Assembly (NCBI RefSeq): GCF_004010195.1
Contig: NC_057718.1
Span: 78,728,935-78,757,139 of the forward strand
Origin: Chiloscyllium plagiosum
Taxonomy: Eukaryota
DNA length: 28,205 bases
Reading direction: 5' to 3'
A program made the translations under genes and the position numbers. The notes under the pieces are model-generated. The model saw only the letters and a list, made by a program, of their open reading frames with translations, did no database searches and had not been told where the DNA came from. Shown one piece after another: positions 3,552-28,205 of the stretch. The number at the start of each line of letters is the position of its first letter. Positions within the stretch are counted from its first letter, which is position 1.

Positions 3552-3836
3552 NNNNNNNNNNNNNNNNNNNNNNNNNNNNNNNNNNNNNNNNNNNNNNNNN
3601 NNNNNNNNNNNNNNNNNNNNNNNNNNNNNNNNNNNNNNNNNNNNNNNNNNNNNNNNNNNNNNNNNNNNNNNNNNNNNNNNNNNNNNNNNNNNNNNNNNNN
3701 NNNNNNNNNNNNNNNNNNNNNNNNNNNNNNNNNNNNNNNNNNNNNNNNNNNNNNNNNNNNNNNNNNNNNNNNNNNNNNNNNNNNNNNNNNNNNNNNNNNN
3801 NNNNNNNNNNNNNNNNNNNNNNNNNNNNNNNNNNNN
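3552..3836. other. Assembly gap (285 N)
   Basis: Run of N. Confidence 1.
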
Positions 3837-24794: not shown

Positions 24795-25860
24795 AGGCCT
24801 GAATTTTACTGGATGACGATGTCAAAGGGAATATATGCGCTCCATTCACATACAGGTGGATGGTGGGCAGCAGGAATTCTTCTAAATATTTACAAAGAAG
24901 AGCCCATTAAATGCTGGCAGGGAAAGGGTCAGCCAATCTAGGGTAGCGGGAGAGTTACATAGGTGGCCACCTGCTGTGGCAGACCAGTTTTAAAGATAAA
25001 AGTGCAGCATTCAGCCAGGCAAAAAGGCTTCCCGACCACTGCAACAGCAGATGAGAAATGGAATGAGGCAATTTAACACTCAAAAGCTCAGAGGATCCAC
25101 TGCAATCTCAGGATACTGCATCATTTTATTCCACTGCAGCCTCTACCCAACTCAGATGCGCTGTCAGTAGATACCTTAGTTGCATGTGTAGAATGGGTTA
25201 CACAATCTGATGAGCACCACACAGGATGAGATAACACAAAGAGAGAGACAACTGTCGCTACTTCACCTCGAAGTGAAGCATCATTTTATGCAGATGCTGA
25301 GCACGAGGTGTCATCAGCAAAAGAGCAGATGATTCCTTGGCAATGTGAAGTGTGGGAACATCTGTAAAAATGTCCAAAGGCATTGCAGTTTCTATGTGGA
25401 AATGATAGAGAAATCCATCGACATCTTGAATAATGCAAAGTTAAAAATCACACAACACAAAAGGCTTAACAGACAATCAATTCTTCAATGTATAATTTCA
25501 GTTACATCACACTGCAAAGTTTTGCTATAAATTCTGTGTTACGATCTAGCCCTACTATAACCTGGTGTGTGTGATTTTTAACTTTGTACACCCCAGTCCA
25601 ACACCGGCATCTCCGAATATTGAATAATGCAATTTCACTAGCATGTATATGCATGGTTTCCACCACTGAGGATTCATGATGATACCAAAGCTGATCTGGT
25701 GAACAAGGTAACCCTTGTTCAGATATAGATATCCCCAAATATGCTGGACCTTAGCAGATCTGAGGCACCTAGACAATGCAGCACATTTCCATCTAATGCA
25801 CTAGAACAGGAATGTTTGCATCTGTTCATACATCACCTCCATGCACCAGAAACACCTCAT
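24795..25860. mobile_element. Degraded Harbinger/PIF-type DNA transposon (Myb-like tail on +, HARBI1-like nuclease relic on -)
   Basis: TIR-like aggcctgaattttac at 24795. Plus strand 25290-25419 reads ADAEHEVSSAKEQMIPWQCEVWEHL..MIEKSI. Minus strand about 25771-25667 reads VPQIC*GPAYL/GYLYLNKGYL..IMNPQ, resembling HARBI1-type GWLLGDKGYPL..WLMTP.RNP. Confidence 0.5.
25439..25619. mobile_element. 181-bp non-autonomous insertion (Penelope-like terminal sequences) with a 13-bp TSD and a 19-bp inverted repeat
   Basis: ttgaataatgcaa occurs at 25426-25438 and 25620-25632. caaagttaaaaatcacaca (25436-25454) is the exact reverse complement of 25568-25586. Family assignment from recall. Confidence 0.75.
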
Positions 25861-26333: not shown

Positions 26334-27012
26334 TTTTTGTACAACAGTCGACTGGCTATAGAACCATATGGCACAGCTCCACTAACATCTCCCCTAGAGA
26401 GACACAGTGTTCAAAGACATTGGCGCTCAGATATTTCAATGAAGCTGAACCTCTGACAGTACATCCTTTGTACTGGGTACTGCTTTTTGTGACCAAGAGA
26501 TTGCCCACTTGCCCAAATCTGCTGCTTTGAACTCTCCTTGTCCAAATCTGATGGCTTCCTCAATTCACTGGAGCTCTCCTAACTGTCATTCAATGTGGCT
26601 ATAGACCCATCTCTGCATCACTCTTCTCCTCAGTAGATGATCAACATCTAAATGCACTGAGCTCCTAGATAGATCAAGCTTCTCCAGAATCCTGTCCTGC
26701 CTCCAGTGATCTCTGTGGACCTGGGGGATATGTTTTCATAAGCAGCAATGCAGGGTCTCAAAACTTGGCAGTATTACTTCTTGACAATCCAGGCAGCTTC
26801 ATATTCACAGTTCACACTACAATTCAGCTGCCTTTGAAATCTCATCTCATTTGAGTAGGTGGATCTGTGAACCTTTGTGCATCTCTTGCACCACTGGTAA
26901 AATAAGATAAGGTATCCTGCCTCTCAAACAGTGACCAGCCATAATGTGGTGTCAGTGACAGTTTCAAAGTTCTCCAAATTAAATCAAAACCACATCTGTA
27001 ACTGTGAAAGAA

Positions 27013-27018
27013 TTTAAT
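27013..27018 (-). promoter_or_regulatory. Candidate polyadenylation signal (ATTAAA) for the protease-like gene
   Basis: About 70 nt after the TAA, followed on the minus strand by a GT/T-rich stretch (gatgtggttttgattt). Confidence 0.45.
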
Positions 27019-27088
27019 AATTCACATTTGGAATTTTACATTCTGAATGACAGGAAACATTTGATTGTTGTACTGAGTTATTCCTTTG

Positions 27089-27247
27089 TTAACCATGCCG
27101 TATGGTGTTTTCAATCCAGTCAACAAAAAATGAAACACGGACGTAAACTCCTGGCTTTGTTCGACCTGCACAACCCCGAGACATTACTCCTTGAAGAATA
27201 TATTGGTTTCTGGAGTTTGGACATACCAAAGGGCCTCCAGTGTCACC
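27089..27247 (-). CDS. Terminal coding exon of a plasminogen-like S1A (trypsin-fold) protease-domain gene; catalytic Ser replaced by Thr
   Basis: Acceptor tcttttattttag| at 27248-27249 (phase 0), then 52 uninterrupted codons [52 protein letters not shown] (TAA 27089-27091). Colinear with the plasminogen last exon [47 protein letters not shown]. Confidence 0.92.
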
Positions 27248-27464
27248 CTAAAATAAAAGACCATCGTCAAGGAATCAAGCGATAATAATGAAACCAACTT
27301 GCTTTAAACCCATTAAGTAGCACTCATATCAGATAAATGGTTGACAGGTTTTTGAGTACTGTAACTTTGAGATCACTTGTTTTGGAATTAAATAAAAACT
27401 TAGCTTTTCACTTAAGTACTTATTTTAATTACAAATAAGTCATTTAGTAATATAGAACTTAAGC

Positions 27465-27815
27465 AATTCTGAAAAACAAATTATACCAAAAACCAGTTAG
27501 GATTATCAGTAAGGCTCATGTTTTGGCACTCTTGTGTGCACAGGAAGATGCATTTATTAAAACACAGGCCAATGTTCTTGACAGAGAGCAATAAAATATT
27601 CACATACTGCCACCATTTCAACTCAGCATAATCAGATGACAGCCATTCATTGGGTCATTTCGCAGTCCGACTCAATCTGCCTGTTTTGAAATTAAACAAA
27701 GCCTGGCAAATAACTGTCAATAATCATAAACTAATGCATTCTCCATGGCAATGTCTCTGCCAATTAAATTTCACTTACTAAACAATCAAAACTTTCCTCA
27801 TGTATTATTAATATT
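27465..27815 (+). mobile_element. Old Penelope-like element 3' relic
   Basis: From 27502 reads IISKAHVLALLCAQEDAFIKTQANVLDREQ*, resembling the GIY-YIG C-terminal F.II..A.....L..LEA.YI....P.L.RQ, followed by a cattctccatggcaa terminal motif. Confidence 0.55.
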
Positions 27816-27816
27816 T

Positions 27817-28205
27817 AAAGTTTGTGAGAAGATTTGTAGCTCGGGTGCTCGTGGTTGTGGTTCTGTTCACTGAGCTGGGAATTTGTGTTGCAGACGTTTC
27901 GTCCCCTGTCTAGGTGACATCCTCAGTGCTTGGGAGCCTCCTGTGAAGCGCTTCTGTGATCTTTCCTCCGGCATTTATAGTGGTTTGTCTCTGCCGCTTC
28001 CGGTTGTCAGTTCCAGCTGTCCACTGCAGTGGTCGGTATATTGGGTCCAGGTCGATGTGCTTATTGACTGAATCTGTGGATGAGTGCCATGCCTCTCGGA
28101 ATTCCCTGGCTGTTCTCTGTTTGGCTTGTCCTATAATAGTAGTGTTGTCCCAGTCGAACTCATGTTGCTTGTCATCTGCGTGTGTGGCTACTAAGGATAG
28201 CTGGT
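27817..28205 (-). mobile_element. Penelope-like element 3' end (GIY-YIG C-terminus plus pseudo-LTR); continues off the right edge
   Basis: 28203->27910 is open: QLSLVATHADDKQHEFDWDNTTIIGQAKQRTAREFREAWHSSTDSVNKHIDLDPIYRPL...PSTEDVT*. The H.FDW....I.....R..RE..EAW....S.N motif marks the PLE endonuclease. Confidence 0.9.
27890..27929 (-). ncRNA. Minimal type I hammerhead ribozyme motif of the Penelope-like element
   Basis: GCA-CUGAGGA-U-GUCACCU-AGAC-AGGGGAC-GAAAC-GUC-UGC: CUGANGA and GAAA cores, stem II, GUC cleavage triplet, short GCA/UGC stem I. Confidence 0.8.

Follow-up and report, generated by a model that had tools for sequence, protein, structure and literature searches.

Plasminogen has repeatedly been the source of non-enzymatic kringle proteins: HGF, MSP, the apolipoprotein(a) (apo(a)) of primates and of hedgehogs, and additional copies in coelacanths. 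The cause of this recurrent change, and the roles of the resulting proteins outside primates, are poorly understood. Here we describe plgL, a plasminogen-like gene of the bamboo shark Chiloscyllium plagiosum whose terminal coding exon lies in a stretch of 28,205 nucleotides (the window; G000:C9:78728935-78757139). Our best reading is that plgL is a plasminogen-derived pseudo-protease gene which has been annotated automatically as 'plasminogen-like' and whose function would be non-enzymatic. We consider it probable, though by no means assured, that plgL is an expressed tandem plasminogen duplicate whose predicted secreted product, with five kringles and a dead protease-like domain but no PAN domain, acts as a kringle-based binder, for example as an apo(a)-like competitor of plasminogen for lysine sites.

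Apo(a), encoded in primates by LPA, resembles plgL in several respects. It is a plasminogen duplicate located beside plasminogen, PAN is absent, and a non-activatable protease-like domain comes after the kringles. Apo(a) binds lysine sites and interferes with plasminogen. In a multi-kringle protein of the apo(a) type from colobus (P0159) the activation site is Ser-Ile (CPGSIVGG), as in plgL, and the sequence TAARC indicates that His57 has also been lost, again as in plgL. There are nevertheless clear differences. Apo(a) keeps only kringle-4-type repeats (in many copies) and kringle 5, whereas plgL keeps single kringles 1 to 5 (K1 to K5). The origin of plgL is independent of LPA, since it nests in the shark plasminogens, and it is thus an analogue and not a member of the group. 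A covalent link to apoB-100 of the lipoprotein(a) type is not known for the product of plgL.

HGF and MSP (the product of MST1) also combine kringles with a catalytically dead S1 domain. They possess a PAN domain and four kringles, they have kept an Arg-Val activation site, and they carry Tyr at position 195 and Gln at position 57. These are ancient separate genes, whereas plgL is a younger tandem copy of plasminogen (plg). In coelacanths, PLG-2 copies without PAN and without two of the three catalytic residues are described in an excerpt of a survey of the family (BMC Evol Biol 2019;19:27, PMC6337849). The extra coelacanth copy is reported there with one kringle, compared with five in plgL, and the two belong to separate lineages. 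Coelacanths and birds are the only groups for which the same excerpt mentions duplicates of PLG, with none in cartilaginous fish (PMC6337849). Similarly, the extract of PMC13701976 that concerns Chiloscyllium punctatum lists only the canonical plasminogen. No description of a shark plasminogen duplicate was found among the literature matches listed for shark or Chiloscyllium plasminogen and for pseudoprotease.

Both plgL and its canonical neighbour were mapped from 288 kb of DNA using tblastn and a splice-aware fit. Coordinates outside the window ('extended') continue the window numbering, so that the C9 position is 78728934 plus the coordinate. The features of plgL found in the window are as follows:

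27261..28205, minus strand: 3' part of intron 18 (exon 18 is outside the window, at extended 33571-33426)
27248..27260, minus strand: 3' splice acceptor of intron 18, with a polypyrimidine tract and AG at 27249-27248; transcript contigs stop at 27249
27089..27247, minus strand: terminal coding exon (exon 19) of plgL, 52 codons and TAA (27091-27089), with a plasminogen match and transcript coverage
27239..27241, minus strand: ACT codon (Thr) at the catalytic Ser195 position, codon 3 of the exon; AGT in the canonical paralogue
27170..27181, minus strand: TCT CGG GGT TGT (S-R-G-C), Trp215 to Arg and a 2-residue deletion compared with canonical SWGLGC (from alignments; 6-nucleotide gap)
26999..27088, minus strand: 3' untranslated region of about 85-90 nucleotides, with ATTAAA at 27018-27013; transcript contigs end at 26999-27006

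The exon is a stop-to-stop open frame (27247..27089, minus strand) and is directly preceded by the pyrimidine-rich acceptor cttttattttag. A preliminary description of the window had reported an intact terminal exon with a strong acceptor, the ACT codon, both cysteines and a plausible poly(A) signal, and all of these are indeed present in the sequence. The codon context is GGT GAC ACT GGA in plgL and GGT GAC AGT GGA in the canonical gene. The two cysteines, Cys191 and Cys220 in the chymotrypsin numbering, are both present. The change of Trp215 to Arg and the loss of two residues before Cys220 (SWGLGCA to S--RGCA) are additions to the earlier account. The exon did not appear in the list of open reading frames (ORFs); its length of 52 amino acids, below the 60-amino-acid default of such lists, would explain this. 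When exon 19 was compared with the PDB chains using phmmer, the best 15 rows were all plasminogen (E 1.2e-13 to 6.8e-13). At 100% identity it matches the C-terminal end of P0001 (602 amino acids), which is the NCBI protein 'plasminogen-like isoform X3 [Chiloscyllium plagiosum]'. A search for isoforms X1 and X2 found neither: the terminal exon and the K1b exon have no 100% match in any other protein.

A search of the genome with the exon 19 region identified a second copy, 143 kb lower on the same strand, which is 74% identical including the flanks and reads GDSGGP...SWGLGCA. No third copy or retrocopy of exon 19 was found in this own-genome search. The second copy belongs to a canonical plasminogen gene of 19 exons, all with GT-AG borders, which encodes 797 amino acids with PAN and five kringles and which keeps CFGR|IIGG, TAKHC, DIALL and GDSGGP. 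Its exon 1 is located at extended -34354 and its last exon at about -115700. Of the two genes, which share a strand, plgL is the upstream one; about 61 kb separate its poly(A) site (about 27000) from canonical exon 1. The separate canonical plg that the preliminary description had proposed to look for therefore exists, and plgL is a tandem paralogue of it. The view that this is a plasminogen paralogue, and neither HGF nor MST1, is borne out both by this arrangement and by its position within the shark plasminogen clade (see below).

Active-site residues were compared at the codon level and in an alignment with 13 other sequences. The changes from the canonical gene to plgL, each of which is a single-base change, are listed here:

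His57: TAKHC to TAKQC, CAC to CAG (H57Q)
Activation Arg: CFGR-IIGG to CFGS-IVGG, AGA to AGT
Asp189: VDSCQ to VGNCQ, GAC to GGC (D189G)
Ser195: GDSGGP to GDTGGP, AGT to ACT (S195T)
Trp215: SWGLGC to S--RGC, W215R together with the 2-residue deletion

Asp102 (DIALL) and every cysteine of the protease domain are kept. The S1 domain is recognised by the complete Pfam profile (PF00089, Trypsin; positions 1-220 of 220, 184.2 bits with a cut-off of 20.6), which identifies a fold family and not an activity. Each of the listed changes would cripple a trypsin-like protease, and plgL has at least five such changes, the replacement of Ser195 by Thr among them. The product is predicted to have no proteolytic activity.

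The preliminary description had also raised the alternative of a Thr-protease, that is, an active enzyme in which Thr195 serves as the nucleophile. GD-T-GGP does keep Gly193 and Asp194, Asp102 is present, and Thr195 is conserved in three organisms. The upstream exons, however, make such an enzyme highly improbable. With Gln at position 57, Gly at position 189 and Ser at the activation site, Thr195 would lack a general base and an S1 anchor, and the zymogen would not be activated, as an Arg-specific activator cannot free the Ile16 N-terminus; in addition, Trp215 is Arg, with the 2-residue deletion. Position 195 itself behaves as unconstrained, since it is occupied by Asn or Gly in other sharks (see below). 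The other suggestion made at that stage, an independent loss of activity comparable to that of apo(a) or of HGF and MSP, is the one that stands, because the conserved catalytic machinery is gone.

Twenty runs from eight studies contain the window stretch or part of it. The contigs of four of these were aligned: X3 and X2 (C. plagiosum; different samples and studies) and X15 and X16 (two other organisms). In all four runs the contigs cover only about 27000-27249, and neither the flank downstream (26400-26948) nor the non-repeat part of the intron (27254-27619) has any contig depth. In X2 and X16 the contigs run past 27249 with a loose end that matches, in reverse complement, the final part of exon 18 (...NIEHSVGNC); the X3 and X15 contigs carry a further 1,060 and 492 nucleotides, respectively, beyond exon 19. 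Since the intron is uncovered and the contigs continue into exon 18, these are spliced transcripts. plgL is thus transcribed, and its exon 18 is spliced to exon 19, which answers the question of expression raised in the preliminary description. The transcript ends (pieces start at 26999, 27002 and 27006) are located 7-14 nucleotides past the ATTAAA signal.

These contigs also bear on the identity of the catalytic codon. ACT is one substitution from AGT, and the earlier caveat had been that a sequencing or assembly error might have altered one base of a normal plasminogen exon. This is now scarcely credible: the contigs of all four runs (four samples and four studies, including the two other organisms) carry ACT with no alternative letter at 27239-27241, and many further sites separate this exon from its canonical counterpart, as reflected in the 74% identity with flanks. 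X15 shows five differences in the exon (two synonymous, two replacements including Gly216 to Ser, and one in the untranslated region) and X16 shows two (one synonymous and one replacement).

The upstream exons of plgL, whose recovery had been suggested as a check, were recovered. They show changes at His57, at Asp189, at the activation site and in PAN, and retention of Asp102 and of the kringles. The gene, in extended coordinates, is organised as follows:

146282-146216, minus strand: exon 1 (signal peptide), well conserved, with a GTAAGT donor
About 146125-145990, minus strand: exon 2 (dead)
Exon 3: not found
121812-121698, minus strand: exon 4
105991-105852, minus strand: exon 5
99402-99282, minus strand: exon 6
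87054-86936, minus strand: exon 7
75147-74985, minus strand: exon 8
74725-74604, minus strand: exon 9
70466-70310, minus strand: exon 10
58392-58202, minus strand: exon 11, with the donor set to agree with P0001
56547-56399, minus strand: exon 12
53646-53550, minus strand: exon 13
47098-46978, minus strand: exon 14
43349-43275, minus strand: exon 15
42837-42697, minus strand: exon 16
36376-36270, minus strand: exon 17
33571-33426, minus strand: exon 18

The model therefore includes 17 exons (exon 1 and exons 4-19) with GT-AG borders at all 16 introns. Exon sizes are those of the canonical gene except for a 24-nucleotide in-frame insertion in exon 11 (the K4-K5 linker) and the 6-nucleotide deletion in exon 19. 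Disruptions are confined to exon 2 and the lost exon 3. In exon 2 the acceptor AG has become AA and the donor GT has become CT, there are three 1-nucleotide indels, and of the two PAN cysteine codons one now reads TGA and the other TCT. The 24,201 nucleotides that separate exon 2 from exon 4 contain no detectable remnant of exon 3 (best E with blastn 0.18). This interval holds 228 N (runs of 120 and 108), and it is unlikely that the 107-nucleotide exon is hidden in them. Canonical exons 2 and 3 together measure 136 + 107 = 243 nucleotides, so that the frame is preserved when exon 1 is joined to exon 4. The resulting sequence of exon 1 and exons 4-19 has 729 codons, contains no internal stop and encodes a signal peptide, K1-K5 and the protease-like domain. 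The exon 1 to exon 4 splice is a predicted one. Each of the five kringles is nearest to its canonical counterpart, and all 32 kringle cysteines, counting six per kringle and those between kringles, are present, the same number as in canonical plg.

P0001 has no PAN domain according to Pfam. Residues 1-116 of this protein are the K2b and K3a exons (extended 87055-86933 and 75165-74986) translated out of frame, and its N-terminus is an artefact of the model. Genomic frameshifts were considered as a cause and rejected, as both exons are intact in their own frame.

The same architecture is found in a second species. A search with the K1b exon retrieved P0167 (chiPu_0005082) of C. punctatum, which is 96% identical over the exon. 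P0168 (chiPu_0005081), on the same contig and with the consecutive gene number, is the canonical plasminogen with PAN. The N-terminus of P0167, MLVFTGLLFLILPSF|AFSLECKSGNG, shows the same signal-peptide-to-kringle-1 join (LILPSF|AFSLECK). P0167 has five Pfam kringles, keeps all 32 kringle cysteines and has no PAN, and the altered CFGSIVGG and SVGNCQ motifs are kept; the model is without exons 15, 16 and 19. It retains the canonical Met, unlike exon 1 of C. plagiosum plgL. The kringles of C. plagiosum and C. punctatum plgL differ at 18 of 453 positions, and those of the two canonical genes at 29 of 445. The latter figure is inflated by residues about 393-404 of P0168 (kringle 4), where 7 differences from the C. 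plagiosum gene occur within 12 residues, a cluster that may reflect gene conversion or an artefact of the model or assembly. Over exons 17-18, plgL differs at 3 of 84 positions and the canonical gene at none of 84.

We then compared plgL with the canonical gene for evidence of constraint. The pairwise ratio of non-synonymous to synonymous substitution rates (dN/dS) is 0.38 for the whole sequence (dS 0.47), 0.31 for the kringles and 0.47 for the protease domain. In the kringles, changes unique to plgL and to the canonical gene number 33 and 34, or 39 and 19, depending on the outgroup. The lineage-specific ratio (omega), which assumes equal dS on both branches, is about 0.43 for the plgL kringles (p 6e-6). 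Gap events provide a second measure. The intron flanks contain 73 in 3,367 nucleotides (p-distance 0.34); exons 4-19 contain 2 in 2,099 nucleotides, both multiples of three, where about 45 would be expected. When neutral decay was simulated, the mean number of stops was 8.6 or 14.7, and replicates with zero stops numbered 1 of 5000 or 0 of 5000. The reading frame and the kringles are thus under purifying selection, and the protease-like domain is relaxed but is open and cysteine-complete.

How might such a protein act? From the conserved signal-peptide exon, plgL would be secreted. Having Ser at the cleavage site, the product would stay single-chain and could not be activated. It may act through the lysine-binding sites of its kringles: by eye, K1, K2 and K4 have the same NYCRNPD-x-D/E...PWC[YF]T...RW-x-[YF]C motifs as the canonical kringles, and K5 keeps the acidic pair. 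These motif residues have roles in lysine binding. Such a protein could be a decoy which competes with plasminogen for lysine-containing sites.

A functional pseudo-protease could also work in another mode, either as a receptor ligand like HGF and MSP or as an angiostatin-like regulator. The constraint described above would be the same, kringles with a dead protease domain are a growth-factor architecture, and Gln57 is shared with HGF and MSP. Several points speak against this proposal. PAN, which together with K1 forms the high-affinity receptor site of HGF, is absent, and so is the activation Arg at which HGF and MSP need to be cleaved. There are five kringles and not four, the D-x-D/E and aromatic motifs are the same as in canonical K1, K2, K4 and K5 (by eye), and the gene adjoins plg and nests in the shark plasminogen clade. 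We regard this other mode as an outside possibility that deserves some weight.

A number of observations weigh against the interpretation of plgL as an expressed kringle binder. The canonical start ATG is ACG in C. plagiosum plgL. The exon 1 to exon 4 junction is derived from frame arithmetic and from the gene model of another species and not from reads. The only NCBI model with exon 19 (P0001) begins in out-of-frame kringle exons; the annotation pipeline therefore gave no model like the one proposed here. The RNA nature of the runs is deduced from the spliced contigs and the uncovered intron, as their listed kinds are '?', 'DNA?' or 'RNA?'. In the protease domain plgL has 39-41 unique changes and the canonical gene 19-21, so that plgL evolves about twice as fast, and its lineage omega there is about 0.72, not significantly below 1 (p 0.17). 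Taken together, this ratio and the doubled rate mean that the protease sequence may matter little beyond staying open and folded. No plgL orthologue was present in Rhincodon or other orectolobiforms among the best 120 of 357 annotated-protein matches, a weak negative. Finally, the decoy mechanism is suggested by analogy with the apo(a) literature.

Several of these points would be shared by an expressed but dying unitary pseudogene, in which an old promoter is still active and no functional protein is made. The dead exon 2, the missing exon 3, the altered start codon, a protease-domain omega that is indistinguishable from 1, the out-of-frame N-terminus of the NCBI model and the absence of close orthologues beyond C. 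punctatum among the annotated-protein matches listed can all be read in this way. We nevertheless consider a pseudogene unlikely. The 729 codons are open, whereas almost no neutral simulation stayed without a stop, and all 16 introns have GT-AG borders; only two gaps, both in frame, have accumulated; kringle omega is low, and kringle divergence from the congener is no faster than that of true plasminogen; and all of the kringle cysteines remain intact. The lost start is accompanied by a new in-frame ATG seven codons upstream (GTG in the canonical gene). Moreover, decay is limited to exactly the two exons whose joint loss preserves the frame. The caveat of a recent pseudogene, which accompanied that of a sequencing error in the preliminary description, has in this way lost most of its force.

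The age of plgL was addressed with a tree of 20 rows (HGF and MST1 sequences not included). plgL is placed inside the galeomorph plasminogen clade with support of 100/99. It is apart from the orectolobiform canonical genes, of which those of Rhincodon and C. plagiosum pair at 100/100, and is weakly placed beside a 'plasminogen-like' protein of Mustelus (90/96). Topologies were compared by the P value of the approximately unbiased test (p-AU). A species-specific duplication was rejected with the full-length alignment (p-AU 5e-6). An order-level duplication was not rejected, either with the full length (p-AU 0.138) or with the protease domain (p-AU 0.236). Grouping all four plasminogen-like proteins of sharks in one clade was rejected with the full length (p-AU 0.0012) but not with the protease domain (p-AU 0.27). 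At 14 sites plgL shares its state only with one or other shark plasminogen-like protein, and at two sites only with the orectolobiform canonical genes; no site is shared with both other lineages. The dS between the tandem copies (exons 4-13) is uneven: 0.145 in K2, 0.28 in K1 and 0.74-0.83 in K4 and K5, with the highest value (0.83) in K5. Such unevenness suggests that the 5' kringles of the tandem copies have undergone gene conversion, which therefore probably blurs the tree.

The other shark proteins annotated as 'plasminogen-like' are P0006 from Mustelus (smooth-hound), P0007 from Cetorhinus (basking shark) and P0008 from Carcharodon (white shark), each the product of a second plasminogen-type gene. 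As in plgL, their catalytic Ser is replaced (by Asn or Gly) and the Asp189 loop is damaged, but the damage is due to a shared 4-residue deletion which plgL does not have. Unlike plgL, all three keep PAN, His57 and the activation Arg. The lamniform proteins (P0007 and P0008) also show Cys220 to Tyr. The Thr, Asn and Gly codons at position 195 are each one base from AGT. We tentatively raise the idea, which we think more doubtful than not, that galeomorph sharks possess an old family of plasminogen-derived pseudo-proteases. It would have arisen from one tandem duplication, with Ser195 replaced differently in each lineage, and bamboo sharks would have gone furthest by losing PAN, His57 and the activation site. 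Fibrinolysis, or plasminogen binding at the cell surface, would then have a third apo(a)-like regulator of independent origin. Given the divergence times of sharks, it would be more than 100 million years old.

The presence of plgL beside an intact plasminogen would provide a natural comparison for the conversion of an S1 zymogen into a binding protein, and it could give a handle on the control of fibrinolysis in cartilaginous fish. There is also a consequence for annotation: the N-terminus of the public plgL model is incorrect, and 'plasminogen-like' as a name conceals the predicted lack of catalytic activity.

Some further features of the locus may be recorded. Runs of N occupy 3552-3836 of the window (285 bases) and extended 28206-29696 (1,491 bases), and seven more are present in the plgL introns; the first two are either gaps in the assembly or withheld sequence. 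Intron 18 contains a high-copy repeat at about 27800-28205 (both strands), where the summed contig depth reaches 1e4-2e5 in all four runs (from 27803) and the contigs show many variant letters and joints. A 97-amino-acid open frame inside this repeat (27910-28203, minus strand) has no Pfam match. The stretch 25693-25824 (minus strand), some 1.2 kb past the poly(A) site of plgL, has an in-frame stop and is similar to the alternative N-terminal exon (residues 3-45) of P0010, isoform X1 of whale shark plasminogen (45% identity; E 3e-8 with no composition correction). It was rejected as exon 1 of the canonical gene, the true exon 1 being the one at extended -34354, 61 kb further on. It may instead be an upstream non-coding exon or a relic of read-through.

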